The notes under the pieces: generated by a model | What the model saw: the letters and a program-made list of their open reading frames with translations, nothing else | What the model was told of the DNA's origin: nothing | Database searches by the model: none | Source: Alphaproteobacteria bacterium | Lineage (GTDB): Bacteria; Pseudomonadota; Alphaproteobacteria; RF32; CAG-239 | Direction of reading: 5' to 3' | Length of the DNA: 64,000 bases | NCBI GenBank assembly: GCA_045639065.1 | Contig: JAZUCK010000023.1 | Location: forward strand, 30,429-94,428 | Position numbers and translations under genes: made by a program | Shown: positions 5,555 to 46,350 of the stretch, piece by piece | How positions within the stretch are numbered: position 1 is the stretch's first letter | Layout: the number at the start of each line of letters is the position of its first letter

Positions 5555-5593
5555 ATACTGTTTCTCAGGTTTATTTTTTTGAGGATTTACCCA

Positions 5594-7129
5594 ATGGAAA
5601 TACAAGATAGAAACAGTTTGTTGCAAATATTGACTCCTGCCAAAGACGGAAAACCCCAAATTTCGTCTGTTGAAAATAATGTCTTTGCCGATATTTTGAA
5701 TTTTGCAAAGAATGAAACATCATTTCCCCAAAATGATTCTAAAGGTATAGAATTAAAGCAATCTGTGCGACAAGTTGAAGTATCTAAAAATGTTAAGGAT
5801 AAAGTTCTTGATAAAAAAGATAAAACTTCAAAAAAGACAGAAGTCGAAGACAAGGATGTGTCTAATGTAAAAAAAGAAGAAGATAAGCAAGTAAGCAAAA
5901 AAGATACAAAAGAAGATACTGCTGTTTCTCAAGATAATTCTGCTGACAGCAAGTCTGAAGTTGTAAAAGAAGATAAAAGCGCCACGGAAACAGTATCTGA
6001 AGACAAAAACGGCGACGAAGCTGTTGAAAGTGAAGTCGTTGACACTGAAGATCAATTCGCGGTTGCTCCTGTGACAGTAGCGTTGCAATCTATAGATGAT
6101 GTAGTAGTAACAAAGGATGTATCAAGCGAGAAAGTGGTGCTTTTTGAGCAGAATGCTCCGGTTTCGGCAAGTGTTGAGGAGCTTTATGTTGAAGAAATGT
6201 CAACAACCAAGCAGGAAGCAGACGTAAAAGCTTCTCAAACTGCCGTAGAAGAATTTTCAATACTGAGCGAAGAAGAAAAATTGCTTATGGAACAAGCAAA
6301 GTATTTTGATGAAAAGGTCGCTTCTGATAAAAAGCTAAAAGTAGATGTCAGCGTTTCAGAGGCAAAAATTGCCGAGCCGGTTGTAAAAGATGTTTTGAAA
6401 AATCGCTTTGAAATCGACTCAATGTTCCAATCCGTCGATGAAAACGTTGATGTTTTGGCTTCAGATATCGAAAACGTTGTCGATAAAATATCATTAGATG
6501 ATAAAAGTAACAATACTTTGGTCGAAACCAAAAATGTTATATTTAGTGAAGCCAAAATTGTTCAAGATACTGCAAGATCATCTCTTAGCAAAGATGCAAC
6601 CGTTATGGCTGTTTCTGGCAAGGAAGCCGTTACAGAAGTTGTTAATACTTCAAGAAATGAAGCTTTTGCAAAAATAAACGAAACCGCTAATCGCGATGCT
6701 TTTAAGGGAATGGCTAAAGAAGTTGTTGAACAAATCAAAGTTAATATCACTAAGTCCGCCGTAAAAGGAGTGGATACTATTGATATTCAGTTAAAGCCTG
6801 AAGATTTGGGTAAGGTGCAAATTAAAATGCATATCGCCAAAGATGGTAAGGTTCAGGCTGAAATTATTGCATCACGTGCCGAAACGGCAGATTTGTTGCA
6901 AAAAGATGCATCTTCTTTATCAAGAGCCTTTAATGAAGCTGGCTACGATACAGATGTCAAAAGCTTTACTTTCAGCTTCCAAAATGAAAATCAAGCCAAA
7001 GGTCAAGAAAAAGATGATGCCGAATTGTTGAAGTTTATCGGTGATACATTAGAGCAAGAAGCTGAATCCTTCGCCGGTAATGACAACTTGGAATATGATC
7101 CTGTTTTGGGATTAAATATTAGAGTTTAA
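5594..7129 (+). CDS. fliK: flagellar hook-length control protein FliK-like
   Basis: Long acidic/Lys-rich low-complexity N-terminal part. The C-terminal segment IDIQLKPEDLGKVQIKMHIAKDGKVQAEIIASRAETADLL resembles the FliK C-terminal domain. Lies directly upstream of flgD-flgE. ATG at 5594 is preferred over the TTG at 5579 because GAGGA sits 8 nt upstream. Confidence 0.65.
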   Translation: MEIQDRNSLLQILTPAKDGKPQISSVENNVFADILNFAKNETSFPQNDSKGIELKQSVRQVEVSKNVKDKVLDKKDKTSKKTEVEDKDVSNVKKEEDKQVSKKDTKEDTAVSQDNSADSKSEVVKEDKSATETVSEDKNGDEAVESEVVDTEDQFAVAPVTVALQSIDDVVVTKDVSSEKVVLFEQNAPVSASVEELYVEEMSTTKQEADVKASQTAVEEFSILSEEEKLLMEQAKYFDEKVASDKKLKVDVSVSEAKIAEPVVKDVLKNRFEIDSMFQSVDENVDVLASDIENVVDKISLDDKSNNTLVETKNVIFSEAKIVQDTARSSLSKDATVMAVSGKEAVTEVVNTSRNEAFAKINETANRDAFKGMAKEVVEQIKVNITKSAVKGVDTIDIQLKPEDLGKVQIKMHIAKDGKVQAEIIASRAETADLLQKDASSLSRAFNEAGYDTDVKSFTFSFQNENQAKGQEKDDAELLKFIGDTLEQEAESFAGNDNLEYDPVLGLNIRV

Positions 7130-7151
7130 CAGGTAATGGGGAGATAGTGTC

Positions 7152-7928
7152 ATGACAGATTTAAGCTCAATTATCACATCAGTAAATTCAGGTGTTTCTA
7201 AAGGAACAAATTCTGCTCAAACTTTGTCTGCCGATATGGATACATTTTTAACATTATTGACGACACAGTTGCAATATCAAGATCCTTTGGATCCGATGGA
7301 CGCATCTGAATACACTAACCAACTTGTTCAGTACTCTAATGTGGAACAAGCAATCCAAACTAACTCAAAATTGGATAATTTGCTTAATTTATCAATTTAT
7401 AATTTGGGTGTTCAAGCGACAAGTTATGTTGGCAAAACAATTCAAGCCATTAGCGATATGATGCCATTAGATAAAGGCGTGGCTAAAGCTACTTACACTT
7501 TGAGCAAAGGTGTAACAGATTGCACAATCGTATTAAAAGATATGGATGATAAGGTCGTTTATACTGCAAAAGGTGAAACATCTTCAGGTGCTCATGATTT
7601 TCTATGGGATGGTAAAAATATAAACGGCGAACAACTACCGGATGGAGCATACAAAATCGAAGTATTGACGACAGTTCCTGAAGGTGAAGCATCAGCTTCG
7701 GTAACAACAACCGTATTTGGACGTGTAACAGGTGTTGCCAGTGATGATAGCGGAATTTATTTAGGTTTGGGTGATGCTTTAACTACCACACTTGATTATG
7801 TGGTAACATCACGCAACGAAGATTATTGGGATAAATTAATTGCCGAAATTCAGAAGAATAACGGCTCTTCATCAGAAGATGAAGGAATAAAAGAAGAATT
7901 AGAACAAATAATAGCGCAAATTGCGTAA
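7152..7928 (+). CDS. flgD: flagellar hook assembly/capping protein FlgD
   Basis: N-terminal FLTLLTTQLQYQDPLDPMD motif, a FlgD Ig-like middle part (HDFLWDGKNINGEQLPDGAYK), and position upstream of flgE. Confidence 0.88.
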   Translation: MTDLSSIITSVNSGVSKGTNSAQTLSADMDTFLTLLTTQLQYQDPLDPMDASEYTNQLVQYSNVEQAIQTNSKLDNLLNLSIYNLGVQATSYVGKTIQAISDMMPLDKGVAKATYTLSKGVTDCTIVLKDMDDKVVYTAKGETSSGAHDFLWDGKNINGEQLPDGAYKIEVLTTVPEGEASASVTTTVFGRVTGVASDDSGIYLGLGDALTTTLDYVVTSRNEDYWDKLIAEIQKNNGSSSEDEGIKEELEQIIAQIA

Positions 7929-7952
7929 GTAAAAAGTTTTAGGAGAAATAAA

Positions 7953-10097
7953 ATGAGTATTTTAGGAGCATTACAAGCCGGTGTATCAGGCCTCGGAGCG
8001 CAGTCAAGCGCAATGGGAGCTATTGCCGACAACATAGCCAATATGAATACTATTGGTTATAAAAATAACAATGTATCTTTTTCAACTTTGGTAACTAAAC
8101 AGGTGTCATCAAGCAAATATTCTGCAGGCGGTGTACAATCACACACATCACAAAGCATTGATACACAAGGTTTATTATCATCTGTTTCATCAACAACCTC
8201 ATTAGCTGTGAGCGGTAACGGATATTTCGTAGTGAATTCGCACAATATTGGTGATGGTACATGGGCATATACCCGTGCCGGTGATTTCTTGAAAGATGAA
8301 ACAGGATATTTGGTAAATTCCGGAGGATATTATGCACAAGCATGGTCTTTGATGCCTTGGGATGGTACTGAATCTGCAGCAACAGTTGAAATTAACGGCA
8401 TTATTTATATGAAAGCATATAAAAATGAAAATGGCGAAACTGTATACATCAATGACAATATTGTTGATGAAAACAATCTTCGCGGTATTAACCTTTCAAA
8501 CATCGGCGGAACAGCAACACCGACAACTCAAATTGCTTTTGGTGCTAACTTGCCTTCATCAAGCCGTATTGGCGAAACTCATTCTGTTTCTACCTTAATT
8601 TATGATAGCCTTGGTAATCCGAATAACATCAGTTTGAACTATACCAAAGAAACAGCAAACTCTTGGGGCTTGAAGACTTCTATTCCTTCAGGAGCTGCTG
8701 CTATCAACCTTTACACAACTGATGGTTTGGTTTATTCATCAATCGGACAAATGGAATTTACCGACATTCCTGCTGAGGGTTCTACAATTAAAATTAACGA
8801 TACCGTTTTTGAATTTGTTAATGACAAGAATCTTGAAAATGGCAGTGCAATCGGCAACGGTAATAATAATATTGCCGTCAATATTGCCGAAGCTAATTCG
8901 GTAAAAGATGCTATTGACAGATTTTTGGAAGCAATAGAGCTCAATGTCAGAGATGCCGGACGTTTTACAAGAGATAATAATGCTATTAAAATCCAGCAAT
9001 CACTAACAGGTAATGCCTTACAAATTGATTGTAGCGGAACATTGGCTTGTGTTCAGTCGGCTGCCGATATTGATCAATCATCAGGATTATCTCAAGGTAT
9101 CTTTACCGTAGAAGCTGTTGACAATCAAATCAAAAATTGCGCATATGTCGATTTTTCATCTATCACTCAAGGTCAAAGCATAACTATTGATGGTGTGGAA
9201 TTTGTATTTGATAATGTTCAAAATGCAGATACTCCGACCAAGATATATGTTGGTTATTCCGCAGATTATTCAATGGCACAATATGTTGATATGCTTACCA
9301 GAAAGATTCAAGATTCTAATGTGGCCGAGCCTGAAAGATTTGTTGCCAGCGGAAAAACCTTGCAAATTATTCCGACATCAACAGGCGAAGATATTACTGT
9401 AAATTATACGATAACAGCTGACTTTGCTCAGATTGCCGGTGGCGATCCTGAAAATGTAATTCCTGCCACAATAACAAATAAATTTACTTATGATGATGTT
9501 GAGCAATTAGGAAGCAAAATTCCGGCCATTATGTTCAATTCTGATGGTACACCAAAGAACATAAATGTTGAAAATATGGAAATATATTGGGCAAACGGAG
9601 CTCAAGATATGACCGGTGAAGTAAAATTGGGCGATGGTGTACAAATCAAAATTAACATGGGTGAAGAAAACGTATCAACAGGTTTGACAAATCTTTCCGG
9701 AGGTTTTTCAACAAGCTACATCAACCAAGATGGGGCAACATTTGGTAGCTACGCCGGTGTAACTGTCGGAGAAGATGGTGTTGTAACCGCAGTCTTCTCA
9801 AATGGTGAAACTCGTCCTATCGCAATTATACCTTTGGCAACTTTTGTAAATGCCAATGGTATGGAAGCTCTTAACAATAACGTTTGGATTGCAACAACCG
9901 AGTCCGGAAATCCTTTGTTGACACAAGCAACTACAGGTGGCGCCGGTGAAATAGTATCATCTTCATTGGAAAGCTCAACAGTTGATTTGGCAACCGAATT
10001 TTCAAATATGATTGTTGTACAAAGAGCTTATTCGGCAGCAGGAAAGATTATGACAACTGCTGATGAAATGTTACAAGAATTAACCAATCTTGTATAA
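7953..10097 (+). CDS. flgE: flagellar hook protein FlgE (large, 714 aa)
   Basis: N-terminal rod/hook motif AIADNIANMNTIGYK. C-terminal VDLATEFSNMIVVQRAYSAAGKIMTTADEMLQEL. Has a long central insert. Confidence 0.92.
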   Translation: MSILGALQAGVSGLGAQSSAMGAIADNIANMNTIGYKNNNVSFSTLVTKQVSSSKYSAGGVQSHTSQSIDTQGLLSSVSSTTSLAVSGNGYFVVNSHNIGDGTWAYTRAGDFLKDETGYLVNSGGYYAQAWSLMPWDGTESAATVEINGIIYMKAYKNENGETVYINDNIVDENNLRGINLSNIGGTATPTTQIAFGANLPSSSRIGETHSVSTLIYDSLGNPNNISLNYTKETANSWGLKTSIPSGAAAINLYTTDGLVYSSIGQMEFTDIPAEGSTIKINDTVFEFVNDKNLENGSAIGNGNNNIAVNIAEANSVKDAIDRFLEAIELNVRDAGRFTRDNNAIKIQQSLTGNALQIDCSGTLACVQSAADIDQSSGLSQGIFTVEAVDNQIKNCAYVDFSSITQGQSITIDGVEFVFDNVQNADTPTKIYVGYSADYSMAQYVDMLTRKIQDSNVAEPERFVASGKTLQIIPTSTGEDITVNYTITADFAQIAGGDPENVIPATITNKFTYDDVEQLGSKIPAIMFNSDGTPKNINVENMEIYWANGAQDMTGEVKLGDGVQIKINMGEENVSTGLTNLSGGFSTSYINQDGATFGSYAGVTVGEDGVVTAVFSNGETRPIAIIPLATFVNANGMEALNNNVWIATTESGNPLLTQATTGGAGEIVSSSLESSTVDLATEFSNMIVVQRAYSAAGKIMTTADEMLQELTNLV

Positions 10098-10328
10098 AAC
10101 TAAATAAATCCTAAAACTAAAAAGCAAAGGGGCCTCAGAATGAAGCCTCTTTTCTTTTTCTTTATAAATATCAGTAACTAACAAAGAGGCTGTTAATATC
10201 TTAAATAAATGATTAACTAATGTGTTTTTTTAAGTTAAATGATAAATAAAAGGGGAAATGATTCGCATCAACTTGTTTTTGTAAGTTGGCGGATTCTAGT
10301 GTTTATTTGCTTATAGATTGGGGAATCT

Positions 10329-11957
10329 ATGAATAATATATTGCAGATGATAAAGAATATGTCGCCTTCAAAGGTGGCTTCAATAGCAGCTATTATCATT
10401 TTTTTGATTAGCTTTTTTGTGTATGTAGCCGTACAAATGAGCGGTAACGAATATGTTGTTTTGTATTCTGATTTAGAGTTAAGTAATGCAAAACAAATTG
10501 TAAACAAACTCGATTCTGCCGGTATTGAATATCGTTTAGAAAAAAACGGAACTGAAATTTTGGTCCCGGCCGAAGATGTTAATCACTTGCGTTTGGATAC
10601 GGTTGACTTTGCTTTGGGCTCCGGTACAACATCAGTAGGCTATGAAGTTTTTGATAATACAGATGCTTTGGGTTCAACAAACTTTGTTCAAAATGTTAAT
10701 TTGCTCAGAGCTTTAGAAGGCGAACTTGCCAGAACAATAAGTTCAGTTGATAATATCAGAACAGCTCGTGTACATTTAGTTATGCCTAAAAGAGAGATTT
10801 TTTCCCGTGAAGAACAAAAGCCGTCTGCATCAGTTATTATAAAAACAAAAGAAGGCCCTCTAAATCCTCAAAGTATACAAGCAATTCAAAAATTGATTGC
10901 TGCGGCAGTTCCAAAACTTGATATGAAGGATATCTCCATTGTAGATTCTAATGGTAACTTGCTAACCGAATTCAGCGAAGAACAAAATGAAATTGTCAAA
11001 AAGTCAAACAATGAAACAATGCGTTTGGAGCAAGAATATAAATTGAATCAACGCTTGCAAGAATTATTGGAAAAAAGCTTAGGCAAAGGAAAGGCTCAGG
11101 TTCAAGTAAACTTAGAGATGGATTTTGATGAAGTTGTTACCAATGAAGAGATATTCGATCCGGACAGTCAGGTTGTTCGCTCTCAGGCCAGTATGACTGA
11201 AGAAGGAACTTCGGGACAAGACGCATCTCAACCTGTTACCGTAGGTCAAAATATACCAAACTCTGACAGTTCGTTCCCGTCTTCAAACGGAGCTTTTGGC
11301 ACAATGTCAAAAACCGAAGAAACTATCAATTATGAAATTTCTCGTATCGTTAGAAACAAAGTAAAGAATACCGGAACTATTTCTCGTGTTACTGCAGCTG
11401 TTTCTGTTGATGGTACATATAAAAGAAACGCCGAAGGTCGTATGGTATATCAACCGCGAACTCCCGAAGAAATGGAGCGCATTACCAATTTGGTAAAATC
11501 GGCTGTCGGATATGATGCTAATCGTGGAGATTTGGTCGAGGTTGTAAATATTAAATTCTCTTCATTTATTGATGAAGAAGATAGTCTTCCTGAAAAATTA
11601 TACATGGGCTTTACCAAACAAGAACTTATGCGTATGGCCGAAGGATTAGGCGTTGCAATAGTTGCAATATTGGTTATTTTATTGGTAATCAGACCGTTGA
11701 TAAACAATGCATTTGAAGTATCAAATAATAATTCTGCAGAAAAACTTATTTCATCGGGTGTAGATGAAGACAATCTGTTGTTGTCAAACTTCTTAAGTGA
11801 TAATTATGACGATGCTGCCGATGAGCTTGTCAATATAAACAAAGTTGACGGACGCATTAAGGTATCATTGATTAAGAAACTTAATGCAACGGTTGAAAAG
11901 AACCCTGATGCTTCAGTTAATGTAATTCGTAGTTGGTTATATGGTAATGAAGGTTAA
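10329..11957 (+). CDS. fliF: flagellar MS-ring protein FliF
   Basis: 542 aa. N-terminal TM segment, YscJ/FliF domain ([44 protein letters not shown]), and a second TM segment near the C-terminus. Confidence 0.92.
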
Positions 11958-11962
11958 TTACA

Positions 11963-12991
11963 ATGGCTATAAAACAAAACGTAATAGATGATTATAATCT
12001 TTTATCCGGTCAGCAAAAAGCCGCCATTTTGATGTTGTCATTAGATGAAGAACGTTCGGCAGCAATATTTTCTATGATGGATGATGAAGAAATTAAAGAA
12101 CTATCGGTAACAATGGCTTCATTAGGTAAAGTTAACTCTAATGTTATAGAACAGTTGATTAACGAATTTAGTGATAAAATTACCGATACAGGTAATTTGG
12201 TGGGAACATACGAAAGTACGGAAAGATTATTGGCCAAAGCTTTGGATAAAGACAGAGTTTCGGTTATTATGGAAGAGATAAGAGGTCCTGCCGGTCGAAC
12301 CATGTGGGATAAGTTGGGTAATGTAAATGAACACGTTTTAGCTAACTACCTAAAGAATGAATATCCGCAAACTATTGCTGTTATTTTATCAAAGATTAAA
12401 GCAGATCATGCAGCTAAAGTTATTGCATTATTTCCCGAAAATTTTGCAATGGAAATTGTTATGAGAATGCTACGAATGGATTCTGTTCAAAAAGAAGTAT
12501 TGGACAGCTTGGAAAAAACGTTAAGAAAAGAATTTATGAGTTCTTTGTCAAAATCAACCAGAAGAGATGCTCACGAATTTATTGCAGATATATTTAATTC
12601 TCTTGATAGAAATACCGAAACACGCTTTATGGAAGCTTTGGAAGAACGCAATCGTGAAAGTGCAGAAAGAGTAAAGTCTTTGATGTTCACGTTCGAAGAT
12701 TTGACAAGAATCGATTCTCAAGGCATTCAAATTTTGTTGCGCAATATAGACAAAGACAAACTTGCTATTGCATTGAAGGGTGCTTCAGATACCTTAAAAG
12801 ATTTGTTCTTCAACAATATGTCAACTCGTGCCGGAAAAATTGTCAAAGAAGATATGGATGCTATGGGTCCTGTTCGTATGCGTGAGGTTGAAGAAGCTCA
12901 ACAATACATTGTGGCCGCAGCAAAAGATTTGGCTGCATCCGGTGATATTGTTGTTGCCGAAGGTAATGATAGTGATGAGTTGGTATACTAG
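11963..12991 (+). CDS. fliG: flagellar motor switch protein FliG
   Basis: 342 aa. Contains [33 protein letters not shown] and the C-terminal [19 protein letters not shown] segment typical of FliG. Confidence 0.93.
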
Positions 12992-13009
12992 AGTAAAGGA
13001 TAAATTGAA

Positions 13010-13810
13010 GTGGCTAATTATCAGAAATACATGTTTGATGACTTTGTCGTAAAAAACGACAATGATGAATATGTATTAGCTGATGAGGAGCAACAATTTG
13101 AATATGAACCTGAAGAAAATATAGAAACAGAATTGTTTGAATCTGAGGTCGCCGATGATAAAAATGAAGAATATGTTGAAGAAAAAATTCAAGAAACTCA
13201 AAATGTAGTACCTATAGAAAATAATGATTCTGAGTTTGTTGCATATGATTATGTGAAAGAACCCGAAACAGAAGAAAATCTGGCCGTATATACGGAAGAA
13301 GAATTTCAAGAAGCAATGGTTAAAGCCGAAGAAGTTGCCTATAACAGAGGTTTAGAAGAAGCAAAAAATTCTTCTTTAGAGAAACAAAACATATTATTGG
13401 AAGATATTAAAAATCAGTTGATGACAATCTTTACGTCGCTTGATGATAAAAAAACGGATATGGAAAAAGATACGCTTAATTTTTCGGTAAACCTTGTAAG
13501 AAAAATTTTACCGACTTTGGAAAAAGAAAGAGCCGAAAAAGAAGTGAAAAATTTTTTGGCAGAAAATTTTGCCAATTTTTCATCCCAAGAAGCTTTATCT
13601 TTTTCTTTTAATCCCGATACCATATCCAAGGTTGCCGACAGTATTGGACGATTGGCCGAACAAAATGATTTTGAAGGAAAAATTTCTGTTCACAAAGACG
13701 TGTCTTTAGGTCCTTCCGATTGTCGAGTTGAATGGAAATCCGGAGGTGTAGAACGAAAGTCATCAAATGTATTGGATAAAGTTACAAATTTGATAAATAC
13801 AAAAGAATAA
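13010..13810 (+). CDS. FliH/FlbE-like flagellar export apparatus protein (tentative)
   Basis: Acidic N-terminus and coiled-coil middle. Occupies the slot between fliG and fliN, as FlbE/FliH does in the Caulobacter fliF operon. The call is mainly positional. GTG start. Confidence 0.5.
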   Translation: MANYQKYMFDDFVVKNDNDEYVLADEEQQFEYEPEENIETELFESEVADDKNEEYVEEKIQETQNVVPIENNDSEFVAYDYVKEPETEENLAVYTEEEFQEAMVKAEEVAYNRGLEEAKNSSLEKQNILLEDIKNQLMTIFTSLDDKKTDMEKDTLNFSVNLVRKILPTLEKERAEKEVKNFLAENFANFSSQEALSFSFNPDTISKVADSIGRLAEQNDFEGKISVHKDVSLGPSDCRVEWKSGGVERKSSNVLDKVTNLINTKE

Positions 13811-13820
13811 GAGAGGGAAA

Positions 13821-14174
13821 ATGGATAATAATTTAGAACTTAATGAAATCAGCGAAGCAAGCGTTTTAGATAACGAACCGCTTTTACGCAAAGATATAGG
13901 TGTCGAGGATTTTGACATTCCTACATCTACATCGGATTTAGAAGCCGTATACAATATACCGGTTAAGGTTTCGGCCGTTTTGGGAAAAGCCAGTATGAAA
14001 GTCAGCCAACTGATGAAATTAAATAAAGGTGCTATTATTGAATTGGATAGAAAAGTTGGTGAAGCTATTGACATTTATGTAAACAATTCTTTAGTTGCTC
14101 GCGGTGAAGTGGTAGTTGTTGATAACAAACTCGGCATTACCATGACAGAAATTATCAAATCTACAGGAAAATAA
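13821..14174 (+). CDS. fliN: flagellar motor switch protein FliN
   Basis: 117 aa. C-terminal SpoA domain IPVKVSAVLGKASMKVSQLMKLNKGAIIELDRKVGEAIDIYVNNSLVARGEVVVVDNKLGITMTEI. Confidence 0.9.
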   Translation: MDNNLELNEISEASVLDNEPLLRKDIGVEDFDIPTSTSDLEAVYNIPVKVSAVLGKASMKVSQLMKLNKGAIIELDRKVGEAIDIYVNNSLVARGEVVVVDNKLGITMTEIIKSTGK

Positions 14175-14189
14175 GGATTATTACCTAAG

Positions 14190-15518
14190 ATGGAATTGCT
14201 TATAGTCGGAACACTAAATGGTCAAATCGGAGCTGCCAGTAAGATAGCAATATCAAAAGGCGGTCAGGTTTCGTTGGCCGATAGTGTTGAAAAAGCACTT
14301 GATATATTATATTCAGGCAAAAACATTGAGCTGATTATGGTTGATGTAACACTTGATGTTCACAAGCTTATTTCATCTTTGGAATCTTCAAGAATCAATG
14401 TATTGGTTGTTGCTTGCGGAGTAGCTAATGACACTTCTTTAGCGGTAAAAGCAATTAAAGCCGGAGCAAAGGAATATATCCCTCTACCTCCTGATCCGGA
14501 ACTTATCGGAGCTGTATTGGCAGCCGCAACCAGAGAAAATCATGCACTTATTTATGGAGATAAAAGAACTGAAGCTATTTTAAAAATGGCTAAGCAAATC
14601 GCTCCTTCGGAGGCTTCAGTTTTGTTAACCGGTTCTTCCGGAACGGGTAAAGAAATTTTTTCACGTTTTGTTCATGATAATTCTAAAAGGGCTAACCAAA
14701 AATTTGTAGCCGTAAACTGTGCAGCCATTCCTGAAGCATTGCTTGAATCTGAGTTGTTCGGTTATGAAAAAGGTGCTTTTACCGGAGCTGTTTCTCGCCG
14801 CATCGGAAAGTTTGAAGAAGCTTCCGGCGGTACATTATTGCTTGATGAAATATCCGAAATGGACATTTCTCTACAAGCAAAATTACTTCGTGCAATTCAA
14901 GAAAAAGAAATCGACAGATTAGGCGGAAAAGCTCCCATAAAAGTAGATACCAGAATAATTGCTACATCAAACAGGGATTTGGAAAAATGCACGCTTGATG
15001 GTACATTTCGCCAAGACCTGTACTATCGTTTGAATGTAATAAACATAAATATTCCTGATCTCAAGGATAGGGTCGGTGATATTGTAGTTTTGGCAAAACA
15101 TTTTATCAAAAAATATTCCGAGCTTAACGGTTTGCCGATGAAAGATTTATCAGCAAAAGCCGAAGAAATGTTGCTTAATTATTTATGGCCGGGTAACGTT
15201 CGTGAACTCGAAAATACTATGCACCGTGCGGTATTATTATCGACAGGCGAAGAAATTGATGAAAACTCAATTATTTTACAAACACCATCGGCCGTAAGAG
15301 AAGTAAAAGAAGATAACGATAAAAAAGAAGAAGCTGCATTTGTCGGAAAAACAGTTGCTGAAGTTGAGCGCAAGCTCATTTTGGATACTATGGAAGATAC
15401 AATGTGGAACCGTTCGGCTGCCGCCACGATATTAGGTATATCGATTCGTACACTTCGAAACAAACTGAAACAGTATCAGGAAGAAGGTTATACAATTCCT
15501 TCGTCTAATCAAGGATAG
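14190..15518 (+). CDS. flbD: sigma54-dependent flagellar transcriptional activator, FlbD-like
   Basis: Divergent receiver domain lacking the N-terminal acidic pair. AAA+ core with Walker A GSSGTGKE and the sigma54-contact motif ESELFGYEKGAFTGA. C-terminal Fis-type HTH. Follows fliN as in Caulobacter. Confidence 0.88.
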   Translation: MELLIVGTLNGQIGAASKIAISKGGQVSLADSVEKALDILYSGKNIELIMVDVTLDVHKLISSLESSRINVLVVACGVANDTSLAVKAIKAGAKEYIPLPPDPELIGAVLAAATRENHALIYGDKRTEAILKMAKQIAPSEASVLLTGSSGTGKEIFSRFVHDNSKRANQKFVAVNCAAIPEALLESELFGYEKGAFTGAVSRRIGKFEEASGGTLLLDEISEMDISLQAKLLRAIQEKEIDRLGGKAPIKVDTRIIATSNRDLEKCTLDGTFRQDLYYRLNVININIPDLKDRVGDIVVLAKHFIKKYSELNGLPMKDLSAKAEEMLLNYLWPGNVRELENTMHRAVLLSTGEEIDENSIILQTPSAVREVKEDNDKKEEAAFVGKTVAEVERKLILDTMEDTMWNRSAAATILGISIRTLRNKLKQYQEEGYTIPSSNQG

Positions 15519-15525
15519 TTAAAAA

Positions 15526-17640
15526 ATGGCCGGCAATATAACTAAAAACGGATTTTCAAGTTCAATGAAAGATATGCTCCTAAGTTCTGCTAAAAGGGGC
15601 GACTTGTTTTTTGCTTTTGCCATTATCTTGATGTTAGTTATTTTGATTATGCCAATGCCTGTGTGGTTATTGGATATATCATTGGCTATGTCTATAACCT
15701 TGGCTTGTGTTGTTTTGATGATGGCAATCTTTATCGAAAAACCGATAGAATTTAGCGCTTTTCCTCTTGTTTTGTTAATTACCACAATGTTTCGCTTAGC
15801 GCTTAATTTGGCATCGACAAGACTTATATTATCACGAGGTTATATGGGCGATAATGCAGCCGGTGAAGTAATTAAGGCATTCGGCGGCTTTATTATGGGT
15901 AACAACTTTGTTATCGGTGTTATCGTTTTTGCAATACTGGTTTTGGTAAACTTTATAGTAATTACCAAAGGTTCGGGACGTATCGCTGAGGTTGCTGCTC
16001 GTTTTGCATTAGATGCCATGCCCGGAAAACAAATGGCAATCGATGCTGATTTGTCATCAGGTTTGATAAATGAAGACGAAGCCAAAAAACGCCGTGAAGA
16101 TCTTTCCAAAGAAAGCTCATTTTACGGAGCTATGGATGGTGCTTCTAAATTCGTACGAGGCGATGCTATAGCAGGTCTCTTAATTACATTTATCAATATC
16201 GTTGCCGGTATTATTATCGGTATGGTTCAAAATGATATGAGCTTTGCACAAGCCGGCGAAACATATACTCGCTTAACTGTCGGTGATGGGTTGGTTTCAC
16301 AAGTTCCGGCATTGATTGTATCTGTCGGCGCTGGTATCTTGGTATCAAAAGCCGGTATGACCGAATCAACCGACAAAGTTTTGTTTGAACAGTTGGCTAA
16401 TTATCCGAAAGCCCTAGGTATGAGCTCCGGTTTGGCGGTGGTTTTAGGTTTAATCCCCGGTACTCCGGCCGTTCCGTTTTTTATTTTATCGGCAATAACC
16501 GGAACAACTGCATATTATTTATCTAAGCAACAAAGAGAAGAAGCAGCCAAGGTTCAGGCTGTGTTAGAGCAAGAACAAAAGCAGTCGGCTATAAGTAAAA
16601 TGACCGACGAGCCGATAGCTAATGTTTTGAAAGTTGACTTAATTCGTCTTGAAATCGGTTATGGTTTGCTTCCTTTGATAAACGATGACACCAACCGTAA
16701 ACTTACCGATCAAATAAAAGCCCTAAGAAGAGCTCTTGCCTCAGAACTAGGTTTTGTTATGCCATCAATCCGCATCCAAGATAATATGCAATTAGAGGCT
16801 AATGAATATAACATATATGTTAAGGAAGTAAAATCGGGCAAGGGCGAAATCAGACCGACACAACTGCTGGTTATGGACCCCAGAGGTGATAAGATAAATC
16901 TTCCCGGTGAAGAAACTTTAGAGCCGACTTTCGGATTGAAGGCTATGTGGATAGACCCATCCTACAGAGAAGAAGCTATGTTCAGAGGTTATACTGTTGT
17001 TGATCCTGCGACTGTTGTAACCACACATATTACCGAGTTGGTAAAAGAGAATATGTCAGAATTGTTATCATACGCCGAAACTCAAAAGTTGCTCGACGAA
17101 ATGGATAAAGAACATCAAAAGTTGGTTAAAGATCTTATACCCAATAAGATTAGCTTGGCTGCTGTTCAAAGAATTTTGAAAAACCTGTTACAAGAGCGCG
17201 TATCCATTCGTGATTTGCCAACCATTTTGGAAGGTATATCCGAAGCTGTTACCTCAACTCATAGCTTGATGTTAATAACCGAACACGTACGTTCGCGATT
17301 GTCACGCCAATTATCTAATGCTTACTCTAATGAGTTCGGCGTAATATCACTGGTTCCGCTATCTGCAGAATGGGAGCAAAATTTTGCTCAATCAATTATC
17401 GGAGACGGCGATGAAAAACAACTTGCAATGGCTCCATCTACACTCCAGTCGTTTATAACTAAGGTGCGTAATGTTTTGGAAGAGCTTGCACTAAAAGGTG
17501 AAAATCCGGTATTATTGACCAGTCCGAACATCAGACCTTTTGTTCGTTCAATTATTGAACGTTTCCGTCCGTTAAGCGCGGTAATGTCGCAAAACGAAAT
17601 TCATCCCAAGGCTAAGATAAAAACCGTAGGTCAGATATAA
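15526..17640 (+). CDS. flhA: flagellar type III export gate protein FlhA
   Basis: 704 aa. Multi-TM N-terminal half with the FHIPEP-type motif (GGFIMGNNFVIGVIVFAILVLVNFIVITKGSGRIAEVAARFALDAMPGKQMAIDADL). Confidence 0.95.
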   Translation: MAGNITKNGFSSSMKDMLLSSAKRGDLFFAFAIILMLVILIMPMPVWLLDISLAMSITLACVVLMMAIFIEKPIEFSAFPLVLLITTMFRLALNLASTRLILSRGYMGDNAAGEVIKAFGGFIMGNNFVIGVIVFAILVLVNFIVITKGSGRIAEVAARFALDAMPGKQMAIDADLSSGLINEDEAKKRREDLSKESSFYGAMDGASKFVRGDAIAGLLITFINIVAGIIIGMVQNDMSFAQAGETYTRLTVGDGLVSQVPALIVSVGAGILVSKAGMTESTDKVLFEQLANYPKALGMSSGLAVVLGLIPGTPAVPFFILSAITGTTAYYLSKQQREEAAKVQAVLEQEQKQSAISKMTDEPIANVLKVDLIRLEIGYGLLPLINDDTNRKLTDQIKALRRALASELGFVMPSIRIQDNMQLEANEYNIYVKEVKSGKGEIRPTQLLVMDPRGDKINLPGEETLEPTFGLKAMWIDPSYREEAMFRGYTVVDPATVVTTHITELVKENMSELLSYAETQKLLDEMDKEHQKLVKDLIPNKISLAAVQRILKNLLQERVSIRDLPTILEGISEAVTSTHSLMLITEHVRSRLSRQLSNAYSNEFGVISLVPLSAEWEQNFAQSIIGDGDEKQLAMAPSTLQSFITKVRNVLEELALKGENPVLLTSPNIRPFVRSIIERFRPLSAVMSQNEIHPKAKIKTVGQI

Positions 17641-33432: not shown

Positions 33433-33471
33433 TATTTTTTTTTATTTATGATTTTTTTACAAGGGCTGATA

Positions 33472-40379: not shown

Positions 40380-40964
40380 ATGCAAGCAAACAAATATATC
40401 GGTGATGAAGCTTTTATAAAAATGTTGGAACATTATTCTTGTCCGACACCCCTAAACGTAATAAAAATGCGTTTTGCCGGAGCTATTTGCTCACCAAATA
40501 TGAACTTACGTCCGACAGATGTAATTTCATCATTTTGGGAAGAGGGACGCACACCTCGCTTAGAAACTAAGAAAGAAGCCGATTTGTTCTTTAAGTTTTT
40601 TATGGGCTTGTGGGACGAAATTTTTGAAGATGTGAAAAAAATCGGGGTAAAACTTCCGTCTTCAAAAGAAAAAGATATTCAAATTTATTGCCAAAATCGC
40701 TTCGAAGAAATTGAACAAGGATTTGTTGAGGGCTTCTTCGGCGGACAAGAAAACTTAAAAATGGCCGGATATTTGGCACAAATTGTCGATTCTTTATCCG
40801 AAATGGCAACTCTATATACCAAGATAGCGCTAAAAGGCGAAGCAACTCAAGCTACTTGGGATGCAGTTAAGCACACCGACAAAGTTGTCGAACGCTCGAT
40901 TGCTTTCATTATCGAAAATTCGGTAATGCCACGTATTGAAGACATTAAACGCAGTGTAAACTAA
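40380..40964 (+). CDS. hypothetical protein
   Basis: 194-aa ORF with no competing frame. Family not recognised. Confidence 0.5.
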   Translation: MQANKYIGDEAFIKMLEHYSCPTPLNVIKMRFAGAICSPNMNLRPTDVISSFWEEGRTPRLETKKEADLFFKFFMGLWDEIFEDVKKIGVKLPSSKEKDIQIYCQNRFEEIEQGFVEGFFGGQENLKMAGYLAQIVDSLSEMATLYTKIALKGEATQATWDAVKHTDKVVERSIAFIIENSVMPRIEDIKRSVN

Positions 40965-41758: not shown

Positions 41759-43054
41759 ATGTTTGATATTCAATTTTATAAGATGGCGATGCTAAAAATA
41801 GATTTGCAAGATTTGTTTTTTGCATATTTTAACTGTCGCAAAAACAAAAGGCGCACGGTAAATGCACTTGATTTTGAATTAGACTTCGAAACCAAGCTTA
41901 TCAAATTATATAATGATATAAAAAAACGCAAATACGAAATAGGCAAATCAATAGCATTTATAGTATTTGAGCCGGTAAAGCGAGAAGTTTTTGCTGCTAA
42001 TTTTCGAGACAGAATAGTTCATCATTATATTATAGATAAAATAAACAAATATTTTGAAAAAGATTTTATAGACGACAGTTATAGTTGCCGAGAGGGTAAA
42101 GGTACCTTATACGGAGTAACACGCATATACGAATATATGCGTGAATGTTCGCAAAATTATACAAAAGATTGTCATATACTAAAGTTGGACATTCGTTCAT
42201 TTTTTATGAACATTGATAAAAATATATTATTCAAAAGCCTTAAAAAATTTTTGGACAGTAAGTATAAAAATCCTGACAAAGACACAATTTTATACCTGAT
42301 AAAAAAGGTAATTTTCAACAATCCCGAAGACAATTGTATAATAAAAGGCAAACTATCAGATTGGAACGGTTTGCCTTATTACAAAAGCTTGTTTTGGTCG
42401 AACAAAAACAACGGATTGCCCATAGGAAATCTGACCTCGCAGGTTTTTGCCAATTTTTATTTAAACTCTTTAGATAAATACATTACAAAAGATTTGGGTA
42501 TAAAATATTATGGTCGCTACGTTGATGATTTTGTAATTATCCACGAGGATAAGGAATACTTAAAGAAGGTACATATAAAAATAGCAAATTTTTTAAGACG
42601 AGAGCTAAAACTTACACTTCATCCGCAAAAAGTATATCTTCAACACTATAGCAAAGGGGTAAAATTTATTGGTGCCATAATCAAGCCCAATCGAATATAT
42701 ATCGGCAACAGGACCAAAAACGGATTGTATAATAAGATTGGCTCAAAGCTTGAGATAATGTCACAAGATTTGCCAATAGCACTCAAAGAGATTGCAAATT
42801 TTGAAGCAAGTATAAATTCATATTTTGGATTTATGCGTCATTATAACAGCTATAATTTGCGCCGTCATACCATAGAAAAACTGCAAGAAACATTTGTAGG
42901 CGATATGATGGAAGACAAAAAAGAATATAACAAGATTTCTATAGATAAGCTATTTCGTCCCTTAGAGCAAAAAAAATATCAACTGCGTCATCAACGACAA
43001 TATCGAAGGTGGCAATATAATTCAAAAAGGAGTAATAAAAATGGCAATATATAA
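41759..43054 (+). CDS. DGR-type reverse transcriptase
   Basis: 431 aa. Contains the DGR-clade signature LPIGNLTSQVFANFYLN (I/LGxxxSQ) and the catalytic YGRYVDDFVI (YxDD). No maturase/endonuclease extension. Adjacent to avd and the TR. Confidence 0.92.
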   Translation: MFDIQFYKMAMLKIDLQDLFFAYFNCRKNKRRTVNALDFELDFETKLIKLYNDIKKRKYEIGKSIAFIVFEPVKREVFAANFRDRIVHHYIIDKINKYFEKDFIDDSYSCREGKGTLYGVTRIYEYMRECSQNYTKDCHILKLDIRSFFMNIDKNILFKSLKKFLDSKYKNPDKDTILYLIKKVIFNNPEDNCIIKGKLSDWNGLPYYKSLFWSNKNNGLPIGNLTSQVFANFYLNSLDKYITKDLGIKYYGRYVDDFVIIHEDKEYLKKVHIKIANFLRRELKLTLHPQKVYLQHYSKGVKFIGAIIKPNRIYIGNRTKNGLYNKIGSKLEIMSQDLPIALKEIANFEASINSYFGFMRHYNSYNLRRHTIEKLQETFVGDMMEDKKEYNKISIDKLFRPLEQKKYQLRHQRQYRRWQYNSKRSNKNGNI

Positions 43055-43394
43055 TCAACTGCCGATATATAAGGATTCGTATCAGCTTTTGCTTGAGATA
43101 TATCAAGTTACATCAAAATTCTCTAGAGAACACAAATATAATCTAGGTCAAGATATGAGGCGAGATGCATTAGCAATGATGCGACATTTATATGGAGCAA
43201 ATATAAATATTGAGCACAGGCAAGAATATATCGACAGATTTTTAAATATGTTTGAAATGTTAAAGGTCGAAATAAGGTTATGTGTTGATATGAACATAAT
43301 GAGTATAAATCGCCTTGCGCATATCAGTTTGATAATGGATTCGATAGCCAAGCAAGCGAGGGCATGGAGAGCAAGGAGCGGTCAAAAACAATAA
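43041..43394 (+). CDS. avd: DGR accessory variability determinant (Avd-like four-helix-bundle protein)
   Basis: 117 aa, basic and helical. The N-terminus LPIYKDSYQLLLEIYQVTSKFSREHKYNLGQDMRRDA is typical of the four-helix-bundle / 23S rRNA intervening-sequence protein family. Overlaps the RT stop by 14 nt. Confidence 0.85.
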   Translation: MAIYNQLPIYKDSYQLLLEIYQVTSKFSREHKYNLGQDMRRDALAMMRHLYGANINIEHRQEYIDRFLNMFEMLKVEIRLCVDMNIMSINRLAHISLIMDSIAKQARAWRARSGQKQ

Positions 43395-43410
43395 AAGTCT
43401 TTAACTAAAA

Positions 43411-43522
43411 AAGCCGAAACGCACGGGCGTTGTTGTTGTTATTCTTATTGTTGTTGTTCCGATTGCCATCGGATGTATTTAGTTTCCATGAGTTATTTGA
43501 ATTGTACTCAGAGGAGGACCAA
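43411..43522 (-). repeat. DGR template repeat (TR), with its sense strand on the minus strand
   Basis: The reverse complement is colinear with 45316-45430. Its conceptual translation is Asn-rich: WSSSEYNSNNSWKLNTSDGNRNNNNKNNNNNARAFRL, made of AAC/AAT codons. All 17 substitutions relative to the VR are at TR adenines. Confidence 0.93.
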
Positions 43523-43719
43523 ACCTGACAATATTTTTGTTATCGTTTAAATTTTGAACGACATCTATTAAATCAGATGCTGTAGATAACCCTTTTTTAA
43601 TTAAAAAAAGCTCACTCCTAACGACACGAAATCGATAGAATTCCGGCAGAATATCCAACCGCTCCGGTTAAATATGCTAGTGTTTAAAATTTTTTATGTC
43701 AATAAGGTAAATCAAAACC

Positions 43720-43858
43720 GTCATCCCCCTGAGCGAATGCAATGAGCGAGGTAAGGCATCTTCCTTGTTTTATTTAATTTGAAGATCGCTAACCGCACTC
43801 CGCTAAAGCTTCGTTTAGGCGATGACTCATTATGTCATTCCTCATTCAAGGCGTTGAC
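43720..43858. repeat. palindromic repeat units upstream of the giant flagellin (same family as 46351-47090)
   Basis: The unit at 43720-43765, GTCAT-CCCC..TGAGCGA..GAGCGAG..AGGC-ATCTTC, is an inverted copy of the downstream B unit. The unit at 43781-43826 is GAAGAT-CGCT..AGGCG-ATGAC. A partial unit lies at 43834-43858. Confidence 0.75.
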
Positions 43859-43984
43859 AGAAAAATAATTTTTTTTATATTATTAAGGAAATATTTACAA
43901 ATTTTATGTACAAGCTATAGTATATAAGTGTGTCTTAATATAAGCGCACAATGTAAGAAATACAACCAAAATAGGAAAGAAACA

Positions 43985-46330
43985 ATGGCGAATAGCACCA
44001 TAACATTGACAGCCTCGATGCGTTCGAATCTGATGTCGCTAAAAAATATAGCCACACAAATGAGCAAGACACAAAATATCCTTTCGACCGGCAAAAAGGT
44101 AAATTCAGCCATTGACAATGCTTCCAGTTATTATCAAGCCCGAAGCCTAAGCAATCGTGCGGCAGACCTAAATGCTTTGTTAGATACAATGGGACAAGGT
44201 ATCCAAACCTTGCAAGCCGCTAATGAAGGAATTGAGGCGGCAACATCATATTTGGAGCAAGCCAAAGCAGTAATAGAACAAGCGTCATCAACCGGCGCGA
44301 CCCCTCTGACTTCACAAGTACAATTAACCGACAATGTCGAAGAGCTGTTGGCACAAGGCTATATAGCTATTGATTCGAGTATGACGGGCGAAGATATTAT
44401 GAATTTAATTGCCGAATTAGATGCCGACGGCGAAGAAATAAATCTTGTTTTAACCGAAGATATAGAAATAGATGATTATTTTGAGTTTTATGAAGCAGAT
44501 GTAACCATCAACGGTGCTGGTCATACATTAAAATTGACAAATGAGTGGGGACAACTTTATCTTGGTGGTGAAAATACAACAATAGAAAATATGACTATAG
44601 AGCACACCGGAAATAGTGATAGAGTAATTTATAGCGAAACAACAGGATTGACATTAAGAAATGTCAATATAAATCATGAATATACCGGCAACTATAGCGC
44701 ACAAACAGTATATATGGAATGTGGCGGAACAGTAGAGAATGTAAACATTAATACCAAAGCCGAATCAGTTTTAGCAGGAGTTTTAAGTTATTCCGGCGAT
44801 TTAGATATCAAAAACTTAACTATGGACTTGAGTATTGAGAAAAAAGGCTCGGTAACCGGAGTTTATGCCGGAGCCGGATATGATGGCACCGAAGGTGGCA
44901 ATGTAACGGTTGACGGCATGAGCATCAATGCTCATGGCGAGAACATCAAAGGACTTTGGGCAGCCGGCGAAGTAACAGGCTTAGAAGGTGTTTATAGCGG
45001 AAATTCGAGCATTCCACAATCATTGACCAACGGCAAAGCCAACACCCAAGCGATAGTTGCACAACTAGGTTCAGACGCCAAAGCAGCCTATGCCACAACC
45101 CAATTTTACGTTGGTGATAAGAATGGTGAGTTTGGACAGGGAAAATGGTATTTACCTTCCATTGCGGAGCTAATGGACCTTTATGGAACAGATTATGATG
45201 GTATCAATGGCGGATATGGCATAAGTGGAGCCAATGGCGACAACCTAAGCGCTATCAATACCACCCTCGGCGAATTGGCAGATGACGGTATCGCGGAGGA
45301 AATGGATGGGTGGTATTGGTCCTCCTCTGAGTTCCTTTCAAATTACTCATGGCTACTACTTACATCCGATGGCAGTCGGAACTACTCCAATAAGCATACT
45401 AACGGCTACAGCGCCCGTGCGTTTCGGCTTGTAGAAAATTGCTTTAACCCTTCACTTCTTTCCGGCGCCGAAGGCGACGGCATTCCCAAAGTGGGTGATA
45501 TAATGTATTTAGATAAGTCATGGGGCACATTAGAAGACTATGACTCATCAAAAGCCGATCAAGTAGCCGGCGTCATCTGTGGCGTGGGTGATGATGGTTC
45601 AGTAAGGGTTGTATCATTAAAAGATTTGACTTTCAGTTCATTAGATGACGCCGGAATTTTTAATCCGGACGATCCATACGGCGGAAGTACCAAATATGTC
45701 AGATGGGCAACCTATGATAACGGTAAGTGGGAAGAAAATATCGAAGCTATTACCGACGTAGATGATGCCGCGTTAGCGGCCGCGTTTAATCAGCTTAAAG
45801 GTATTAGTGTCGAAGCAATCAATAATGCTTTTACAAAAGTTGATGTAGATACATATAAAGAACAGTTCAATGACGTTATAAGCCAATATGATGATCTAAT
45901 TAAAGATGCTTCATATCAAGGTGTAAATCTACTTACCGGTGGTGAACTAAATGTTGTCTTTAATGAAACTCGCACGCACAGTTTTAATGTCAAAGGCGAG
46001 GATATTCGCTCGGATAAGTTAGGCTTAAAAACTGTAAGCTGGAATAATGCCGGCGAATTGGAAGTTACTGTCGAATCATTAAAAAATGCTATCAATAAAT
46101 TACGCTCGGTGGCAACTGATTTAGGTAATAAATATACTATTATCCAAACTCGTCAAAACTTTACCGAGGCTTTAACAGATGTATTAGAAACCGGCGCTGA
46201 TGATTTAGTATTAGCCGATATGAATGAGACATCAGCCGAATATCTGATGTTGCAAACAAGACAACAATTGGCAATCAATTCTTTATCTCTTGCTTCGCAA
46301 TCAGCCAGCTCAATCTTGAGTTTGTTTTAA
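43985..46330 (+). CDS. giant flagellin (781 aa) with a central beta-helix-like plus DUF1566/C-type-lectin-fold-like insert; the DGR target
   Basis: The N-terminal roughly 110 aa and C-terminal roughly 160 aa are colinear with, and highly similar to, the flagellin at 1435-2262 (ITLTASMRSNL..GKKVNSAIDNASSYYQARSL; QTRQQLAINSLSLASQSASSILSLF). The ATG at 43985 with an AGGAAAG RBS is preferred over 43928. The insert has repeats (IENMTIE, LRNVNIN, VENVNIN, IKNLTMD, VDGMSIN) followed by GKWYLPSIAELMDLYG...WYWSSSEF...YSARAFRLV. Confidence 0.9.
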   Translation: MANSTITLTASMRSNLMSLKNIATQMSKTQNILSTGKKVNSAIDNASSYYQARSLSNRAADLNALLDTMGQGIQTLQAANEGIEAATSYLEQAKAVIEQASSTGATPLTSQVQLTDNVEELLAQGYIAIDSSMTGEDIMNLIAELDADGEEINLVLTEDIEIDDYFEFYEADVTINGAGHTLKLTNEWGQLYLGGENTTIENMTIEHTGNSDRVIYSETTGLTLRNVNINHEYTGNYSAQTVYMECGGTVENVNINTKAESVLAGVLSYSGDLDIKNLTMDLSIEKKGSVTGVYAGAGYDGTEGGNVTVDGMSINAHGENIKGLWAAGEVTGLEGVYSGNSSIPQSLTNGKANTQAIVAQLGSDAKAAYATTQFYVGDKNGEFGQGKWYLPSIAELMDLYGTDYDGINGGYGISGANGDNLSAINTTLGELADDGIAEEMDGWYWSSSEFLSNYSWLLLTSDGSRNYSNKHTNGYSARAFRLVENCFNPSLLSGAEGDGIPKVGDIMYLDKSWGTLEDYDSSKADQVAGVICGVGDDGSVRVVSLKDLTFSSLDDAGIFNPDDPYGGSTKYVRWATYDNGKWEENIEAITDVDDAALAAAFNQLKGISVEAINNAFTKVDVDTYKEQFNDVISQYDDLIKDASYQGVNLLTGGELNVVFNETRTHSFNVKGEDIRSDKLGLKTVSWNNAGELEVTVESLKNAINKLRSVATDLGNKYTIIQTRQNFTEALTDVLETGADDLVLADMNETSAEYLMLQTRQQLAINSLSLASQSASSILSLF
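45316..45430 (+). repeat. DGR variable repeat (VR) inside the flagellin insert
   Basis: 115 nt matching the reverse complement of 43411-43522. There are 17 substitutions and one extra codon. Encodes WSSSEFLSNYSWLLLTSDGSRNYSNKHTNGYSARAFRL. The variable codons span about aa 450-476 of 781. Confidence 0.93.
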
Positions 46331-46350
46331 GTAAAAATAAAAAACAAACA

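Follow-up and report, generated by a model that had tools for sequence, protein, structure and literature searches.

The 64-kb window analysed here, that is, the whole stretch of DNA under study (64,000 nucleotides (nt) of contig JAZUCK010000023.1 from a bacterium of the Alphaproteobacteria), carries a diversity-generating retroelement (DGR) whose variable repeat lies within a gene for a large protein of the flagellin family. On its sequence, the element is a true DGR by every criterion examined. Its parts are listed below, with positions counted from the first letter of the window.

41759..43054, plus strand: DGR reverse transcriptase (RT) gene, 431 amino acids (aa), with IGNLTSQ and YVDD motifs and a Pfam RVT_1 match at 5.7e-19
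43041..43394, plus strand: Avd accessory gene, 117 aa, overlapping the end of the RT gene by 14 nt and matching Pfam bAvd
43396..43656, minus strand: structured DGR RNA module of about 260 nt enclosing the template repeat, recognised by conserved flanks, covariation and a covariance model
43411..43522, minus strand: template repeat (TR), 112 nt, in inverted orientation to the variable repeat
43985..46330, plus strand: target gene, encoding a 781-aa flagellin-family protein with Flagellin_N and Flagellin_C above the Pfam cut-offs
45316..45430, plus strand: variable repeat (VR), 115 nt, encoding target residues 445-482
45462..45480, plus strand: GC-rich inverted repeat CCGGCGCC-GAA-GGCGACGG, 32 nt past the VR, found by DNA folding and a hairpin scan

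Genes and repeats of the retroelement

The motif pair used as the criterion for a DGR-type RT, [I/L/V]GxxxSQ with YxDD, is present in the window open reading frame (ORF) as IGNLTSQ and YVDD. When the RT was compared with PDB sequences, the top match was entry 8ub7, a 328-aa 'Reverse transcriptase' (3.8e-32), which we take to be the Bordetella bRT from its length and entry series; RTs of group II introns and retrons reached 2.8e-08 or weaker in the same search. Among PHROGs, phrog_1423 ('Reverse transcriptase') was matched at 2.4e-94, and a tblastn search of phage genomes returned RT genes in Bacteroides, Pseudomonas and Burkholderia phages, the organism tally also including five records of Bordetella phages. 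The overlapping ORF scored 49 bits against Pfam bAvd (cut-off 40; 9.4e-13) and 3.2e-18 against the PHROG 'Avd protein of DGR'; its match to NCBIfam DivGenRetAVD (1.5e-11) fell under the cut-off of that model. Both ORFs are intact and the catalytic motifs are present.

The TR and VR were reported by the repeat finder as an inverted repeat, and the TR therefore lies on the minus strand relative to the RT, avd and target genes. Upon alignment of the reverse-complemented TR with the VR, all 17 substitutions were seen to fall at TR adenines (8 A>T, 5 A>C and 4 A>G), none of the 71 non-adenine positions being substituted. As 41 of the 112 nt of the TR are adenines, such a pattern would be expected by chance with a probability of (41/112)^17, or about 4e-8 by our own arithmetic. 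The absence of non-adenine substitutions may be read as a sign of recency. The two repeats differ in length by one in-frame 3-nt indel in a run of AAT/AAC (AAY), the VR being the longer. The TR adenines correspond mainly to the first and second positions of target codons (17, 19 and 5 at positions 1, 2 and 3, respectively), and 20 codons can be recoded, giving about 2e21 possible peptides. The window TR contains no stop codon, and two of its codons (AAA and AAG) are able to mutate to stops. A second VR for this TR was not found in the 64-kb window.

The VR ends in a GC-rich stretch of 19 nt (45412-45430, CGCCCGTGCGTTTCGGCTT) that is identical to the TR and after which TR and VR diverge, and this stretch is probably an invariant segment resembling an initiation of mutagenic homing (IMH) site. 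The inverted repeat at 45462-45480 is a candidate target-recognition hairpin or cruciform. A GC-rich hairpin was found 23-57 nt past the VR in 10 of 10 relatives, with a different sequence each time, in a linker stretch that is poorly conserved as protein. An IMH followed by a downstream inverted repeat has been described for DGR targets (PMC5758913), and the target site of the window agrees with this arrangement.

A first-pass annotation of the window had placed a DGR-clade RT with the same two motifs, an overlapping Avd-like gene, a 112-nt TR and a cognate 115-nt VR, four DGR parts in all, within 41759-46330, and each of these was recovered at its proposed position. The minus-strand orientation of the TR, which is evident from the inverted repeat, was absent from that annotation.

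The giant flagellin target

The target gene likely begins at ATG 43985 (781 aa) and not, as originally proposed, at GTG 43928, since a GGAAAG motif stands upstream of the ATG and the homologs start at the same point. The product consists of a D0/D1 N-terminus (residues 1 to about 102), a beta-helix (about 150-330), a DUF1566/Lcl_C-like domain (about 340-485), an additional domain (about 486-620) and a D1/D0 C-terminus (about 624-781). Flagellin_N scored 48.6 bits (cut-off 26.6) and Flagellin_C 23.9 bits (cut-off 23) with Pfam; the Pectate_lyase_5 beta-helix at residues 150-241 was just under its cut-off, and Lcl_C/DUF1566 at residues 366-478 scored 28.9 bits (E=1.5e-06), under a cut-off of 34.9. 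Three further features of the window bear on the target:

1435..2262, plus strand: 275-aa flagellin of the same genome (Flagellin_N 3.4e-18, Flagellin_C 2.8e-09)
5579..17640, plus strand: flagellar cluster with FliK, FlgD, FlgE, FliF, FliG, a sigma-54 activator and FlhA, assigned with Pfam
43854..43883, plus strand: candidate sigma-70-like promoter of the target, TTGACA-16-TATATT, an 11/12 match from a consensus scan

Target residues 5-102 and 624-781 were found to be 76% and 57% identical, respectively, to the 275-aa flagellin, the final 43 residues being nearly identical. The target is therefore the flagellin scaffold of the cell with an insert of about 520 aa, which is located at the tip of D1, where the outer domains of other flagellins emerge. 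The original placement of the VR, in a central insert between full flagellin termini, was thus upheld, Pfam supporting these termini and the RT alike; the suggested Lcl C-terminal/DUF1566 profile was also seen in the insert, although at a score below the cut-off. Co-regulation of the target with the 275-aa flagellin was considered and rejected, as no meaningful alignment of their upstream regions was obtained and no clear sigma-28 or sigma-54 promoter was visible by eye.

The top PDB matches of the target, by sequence and by fold, were the Caulobacter FljK/FljL/FljM/FljN filaments. An AlphaFold2 model of the protein had an overall predicted local distance difference test score (pLDDT) of 84.7 and long terminal helices, and Foldseek searches with it returned FljK filaments, with the middle part resembling beta-helix tailspikes and pectin methylesterases. 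Residues 335-620 modelled alone reached a pLDDT of 91.5. Lying in the middle of the protein, the VR covers the final beta-strands, at the C-terminal end, of the DUF1566-like domain. A profile of the family matched 8q4e, the Legionella Lcl C-terminal domain, with E=0.0037 over the VR region, and many homologs have precomputed PF07603 matches, one of them being named 'DUF1566 domain-containing'. The assignment of the VR domain to the DUF1566/C-type lectin (CLec) type is considered likely but not proven.

Hundreds of target homologs share the Flagellin_N - Lcl_C - Flagellin_C architecture; few have names, and these are all labelled as uncultured Alphaproteobacteria. A scan of relatives, with one genome per species, gave 78 loci in 32 metagenome-assembled genomes (MAGs), with up to 8-10 paralogs per MAG. 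The MAGs are labelled Alphaproteobacteria, Azospirillaceae or Rhodospirillales and come from human and animal guts (for example, Hadza and Nepal samples, a human-gut genome catalogue and a water-deer rectum). An RT 57-64% identical to that of the window was found beside the flagellin in 12 loci from 11 MAGs, accompanied by an Avd (55-66% identical) in 10 of them, the remaining two ending at a contig edge. A TR of 111-119 nt was located in 11 of these 12 loci, with TR/VR differences nearly all at adenines; no TR was found in the other (L005), whose RT is cut by the contig end. A thirteenth locus with RT, Avd and target was present in a JGI metagenome, in a different neighbourhood.

In one MAG, the TR of locus L072 (7695-7805) matched two VRs on different contigs, at 11024-11135 of L072 and 11315-11425 of L007, with 83% and 85% identity and differences almost all at A, and this pair represents one cis and one trans target. 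The idea that the paralogs serve as trans targets was otherwise rejected, a second VR having been found in this genome only; the other paralogs in RT-bearing MAGs showed no TR match and no RNA module within 10 kb. Two MAGs are particularly rich in giant flagellins, with 8 paralogs in CAKQMD01 (L014, L016-L020, L045 and L067) and 10 in CALXTO01 (L037, L040, L041, L044, L046, L055, L056, L068, L077 and L078), and no RT or TR module was found within 10 kb of any of them. The giant DUF1566-type flagellins are a large unstudied family that is probably lectin-bearing and is independent of the DGR.

The flagellar cluster shows the organism to possess a hook and the apparatus for flagellar export, and the most likely fate of the target is export and co-assembly, because its D0/D1 termini are nearly those of an ordinary flagellin. 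Assembly into the filament is favoured by a small margin only, as far as can be judged from sequence. An alternative hypothesis, which we hold to be possible though rather unlikely, is that the protein is not a filament subunit at all, the termini acting as an export or chaperone signal for a variable lectin or adhesin that is secreted or attached to the tip or surface. The size of the insert (about 520 aa), the sufficiency of the minimal 275-aa flagellin for a filament and the 8-10 giant paralogs of some relatives, which suggest specialised roles, would all fit such a protein. However, D0 and D1 are conserved over their full length, beyond what an N-terminal export signal would comprise, the last 43 residues are nearly those of the canonical flagellin, and in an alignment of 50 homologs most of the invariant columns fall in the termini. 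Furthermore, the closest NCBIfam flagellin models are profiles of 752 and 888 positions, so large flagellins of this type do exist.

The template RNA module and the genomic neighbourhood

In 10 relatives, the TR has conserved flanks, of about 120 nt on its upstream side and about 16 nt on its downstream side, and the corresponding flanks of the window lie on the minus strand. The module comprises a 5' hairpin P1 (43640-43616), a bipartite hairpin beside the TR (43590-43539), a closing helix of 15 pairs (43607-43592 with 43413-43398) that shuts the TR into a loop, and a 3' U-run. According to RNAalifold, the closing helix is formed by CUUUUUUAAU, at the 3' edge of the TR, with an upstream segment that resembles AUUAAAAAAG. 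Across 11 sequences, RNAalifold and pair counts gave 95.5% of cells paired, with compensatory changes at 21 pairs, a result that was not equalled in any of 500 shuffles; slid controls were 44-57% paired. The closing helix contains 4 covarying pairs and competes with a local A/U hairpin when the window sequence is folded singly, and it is regarded as moderately supported by these comparisons.

A covariance model was built from 10 relatives only, with the window excluded. In the window, it gave a single significant match, of 101.5 bits (E=1.4e-25), located on the minus strand at 43656-43506. When 1.18 Mb from 73 other loci was searched, L060 alone was found, an RT-bearing locus that was outside the training set. 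A leftover of the TR module ahead of the window RT was ruled out, as the model finds the minus-strand copy only. No known RNA family was found by Rfam in 41-47 kb. The candidate promoter of the TR RNA is the following:

43674..43702, minus strand: candidate sigma-70-like promoter, TTGACA-17-TAGCAT, a 10/12 match from a consensus scan

It precedes the 5' end of the conserved module by about 20 nt, a suggestive placement, and a terminator-like hairpin with a T-run is found at the 3' end of the TR (43431-43418, minus strand). Together, these consensus matches would bound a transcript of about 260 nt. A 'cPRT Stop duplex' formed by sequences upstream and downstream of the TR is essential in the Bordetella element and has been predicted in 207 DGRs (Handa et al., bioRxiv 10.1101/2023.10.23.563531); the closing helix of the window would fit this duplex in position.

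Comparison with the DGR of phage BPP-1 (brt, avd, TR and mtd) revealed the same RT motif pair, an Avd, adenine-specific transfer from TR to VR, an invariant and GC-rich end of the VR with a GC-rich inverted repeat after it, and enclosure of the TR by pairing of upstream and downstream RNA. The BPP-1 element, however, is phage-borne, with a tail-fibre-tip target, whereas that of the window is chromosomal and has a flagellin as its target, and the gene orders differ (mtd-avd-TR-brt as opposed to RT-avd-(inverted TR)-target). The conserved RNA of the window lies mostly 5' of the TR, the downstream cDNA-priming spacer of BPP-1 (about 140 nt) being without an evident counterpart, and a downstream Avd-binding stem-loop was not identified at the window TR module. 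In all 11 relatives with a located TR, the TR directly precedes the RT, in the same orientation. The order seen in the window could derive from a divergent layout, as present in L052, L060, L066 and L008, through inversion of RT-avd.

The cassette adjoins two window ORFs without a Pfam or NCBIfam match, of 194 aa (40380-40964, plus strand) and 105 aa (39994-40311, minus strand). Genes of equal length are found at the corresponding position of the syntenic relative L001, which suggests that both ORFs are real genes. The cassette of L001 lies between ArgRS/105-aa/194-aa genes upstream and GAPDH-PGK downstream, these housekeeping genes being shared with the window; HlyIII lies on opposite sides of the cassette in L001 and the window. 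Directly after the target gene, a unit of about 120 nt is present in five tandem-like copies (46332-47060, plus strand), with a partial inverted fragment ahead of the target at 43744-43776. The copies carry differing self-complementary hairpins at the same position (CCAAATCGACAGATTTGG versus CGTTTTCGATAAGAAAACG). No other occurrence of the 20-nt core of the unit was seen in the window, and the unit was not found in the loci of relatives; in L009, L060, L008 and L072, the target gene is flanked by unrelated repeats of their own. The window also encodes two ordinary housekeeping RNAs, a class A RNase P RNA (33049-33438, plus strand) and a 6S RNA (21918-22073, minus strand).

Natural variation, proposed mechanism and alternatives

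Activity of the element class was investigated with three clusters of proteins at least 90% identical to one another, obtained from different samples and representing three related species. Outside the VR, polymorphism was sparse and mostly two-state; inside it, nearly every sequence was distinct. In the species of L030 (TR 7901-8019, VR 11321-11439; proteins P0016 and P0121-P0134), 16 of 39 VR codons were variable, as compared with 32 of 747 elsewhere (p=4e-11), and columns with at least three residues numbered 13 in the VR and 1 outside it. Variants were mapped onto TR codons in this one of the three species: all 16 variable codons contain adenine in the TR, and none of the 13 adenine-free codons varies (p=3e-4). 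Such hypervariability at TR-adenine codons indicates that the element class is active in nature. For the window strain itself, we infer activity from the intact genes, the lack of non-adenine divergence and the intact RNA module.

The TR of the L030 species contains an in-frame TGA at codon 455, where full-length variants have Cys or Trp, and 4 of 10 distinct variants stop at this codon, yielding 454-aa fragments whose VRs are all different. The DGR of this species appears to double as an on/off switch. The TRs of L060 (9344-9457) and L008 (929-1042) contain a TAA right after the conserved WSSSE; the VR of L060 (11065-11179) retains it (gene off), and that of L008 (2848-2961) has TAC (gene on). 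TR-encoded stops thus recur in the lineage. The VR exceeds its TR by 1-2 nt, with no frame open across it, in 4 of 12 species representatives (L064 10532-10645, L066 3390-3501, L060 11065-11179 and L072 11024-11135). Such frameshifts are either genuine OFF variants or artefacts from the assembly of a heterogeneous site.

The explanation to which we give high confidence is that the window carries a chromosomal DGR with a single local target, a paralogous 'giant' flagellin. An RNA of about 260 nt would be transcribed from the minus strand, probably from about 43667 to 43400, with the TR enclosed by conserved helices. As DGR biology suggests, the RT and Avd, encoded on the plus strand, would bind this RNA in trans and copy the TR into complementary DNA (cDNA), misincorporating opposite adenines. 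The cDNA would then replace the VR at 45316-45430, guided, to judge from the sequence there, by the GC-rich VR end and the downstream hairpin. At most 20 codons in the DUF1566/C-type-lectin-like domain of the outer insert would be recoded in this way, with about 2e21 peptides accessible. The product would presumably leave the cell by flagellar type III export and co-assemble into the filament, where it would present a binding surface that varies.

Several observations weigh against this account. The 275-aa flagellin could build the filament alone, and the TR and VR are unequal in length by 3 nt. The DUF1566 match of the target lies below the Pfam cut-off, and a Foldseek search of the modelled domain against the PDB gave no significant match, 8q4e coming second with E=0.94. 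Both candidate promoters are consensus matches only. The window TR is inverted and follows avd, the sequence 3' of the closing helix is different (antisense avd), and a downstream priming spacer like that of the Bordetella phage, should one be required, is not evident at it. Lastly, near-identical variants of the window strain were not found, its protein cluster having a single member and the metagenome scan yielding 5 loci, none above 60% identity.

It is also possible that the mechanism is as described and that its benefit is escape, whether through antigenic variation against immunoglobulin A (IgA) or innate recognition, evasion of flagellotropic phages, or on/off phase variation. The gut origin of the relatives, the in-frame stops in their TRs (TGA in L030, TAA in L060 and L008), the common truncations and VR frameshifts, and the two window codons able to become stops would be explained by such a benefit. 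However, the diversification is limited to about 38 residues, the rest of the 520-aa insert remaining constant, which would be poor for hiding, and the frameshifts could be artefactual. Moreover, DUF1566/CLec targets of DGRs are generally seen as ligand-binding surface proteins (PMC5758913). We consider escape to be the less plausible benefit, at about the same low level as a protein outside the filament.

A fossil element, in which the VR was written earlier and homing has since been disabled by relocation or inversion of the TR or by the 3-nt change, is improbable. It would account for the TR arrangement of the window, unique among the 12 loci with a located TR, for the 3-nt length difference and for the lack of window-strain variants in the protein cluster and metagenome scan. 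Against this, both ORFs (RT and Avd) remain intact, catalytic motifs included, no non-adenine substitution separates TR from VR, and the whole RNA module has moved together, with both strands of the closing helix and 101.5 bits against the model of the relatives. Opposite strands for TR and RT, as well as codon indels opposite AAC, have in addition been documented in DGRs judged to be functional (PMC5758913). A further notion, for which only the generic RVT_1 match might speak, is that TR and VR are a repeat of chance or of ordinary duplication and that the RT belongs to an unrelated retron or group II intron. It is effectively refuted by the adenine-only substitutions (about 4e-8 by chance), the presence of Avd, a best PDB match to a 328-aa RT that is not of the retron or intron type, and the same layout in 12 other loci.

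Known DGR targets include phage receptor-binding proteins, lipoproteins, pilus-associated and other surface proteins, and some signalling proteins. The first-pass annotation had named no described DGR that diversifies a flagellin, which holds in so far as the class is uncharacterised; 'flagellin' is, however, named once, without detail, among DGR target annotations (PMC6642488). No flagellin target was found in the supplements of that paper, no flagellin architecture is described in the survey of Wu et al. 2018 (PMC5758913), and none appears in the main text of Roux 2021 or in part of its supplements, which include 338 PF07603 targets. Following full-text literature searches, the flagellin target class is therefore regarded as essentially uncharacterised, though not wholly unmentioned. 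The novelty is the host protein, the VR framework probably belonging with the DUF1566 'category d' targets. The 'category d' DUF1566/CLec2 target LdtA of Legionella pneumophila (PMC5758913) likewise belongs to a cellular DGR with Avd and is presumably surface-displayed; its VR lies in a DUF1566-type domain with a conserved 'WSSSE ... R..N.K' framework, the type to which the VR domain of the window is likely to belong. LdtA is an outer-membrane lipoprotein, whereas the variable domain of the window sits in the outer-domain position of a flagellin, flanked by the polymerisation helices and with a beta-helix ahead of it.

The multi-flagellin filaments of Caulobacter and the large alphaproteobacterial flagellins of the NCBIfam models PRK12688/PRK14708 resemble the target in their D0/D1 helices, in an insert at the D1 tip and in the presence of several paralogs per genome. 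Giant flagellins and the enzymatic 'flagellinolysins' are also flagellins with large or functional outer domains, and none of all these is known to be hypermutated by a retroelement. Unlike them, the window protein would have in its insert a lectin-like domain, one face of which is varied in a programmed way. Classical flagellar variation is represented by Hin inversion in Salmonella, which switches between two fixed genes, fliC and fljB. Both systems would create heterogeneity of the filament protein within a population, and the DGR of the relatives also has an on/off component. Hin, however, acts by DNA inversion on two genes, whereas the window element would act by reverse transcription on about 20 codons, with a very large repertoire.

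Our broader proposal, put forward tentatively and with somewhat more doubt than conviction, is that a lineage of gut Alphaproteobacteria may have coupled a DGR to one of a family of giant flagellins that bear lectin domains, so that the motility filament would be a polyvalent, reprogrammable binding organelle, with a DGR that also serves as an on/off switch and a TR RNA that is a self-contained, trans-acting module. The template stops of the relatives would then be removed only by adenine mutagenesis, and the essential RNA structures would lie 5' of the template, unlike those of Bordetella. For DGR research, the compact opposite-strand template RNA of about 260 nt could be useful in defining minimal RNA requirements. 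For flagellum biology, the target would provide a natural programmable outer domain and, for protein engineering, a scaffold for polyvalent display. Recurrence in many gut Alphaproteobacteria, together with the activity visible in metagenomes of relatives, suggests that the system is ecologically real and not a one-off. If the proposed explanation is correct, a hypervariable ligand-binding pocket would be displayed in thousands of copies per filament, linking motility with adhesion and with host and phage recognition.

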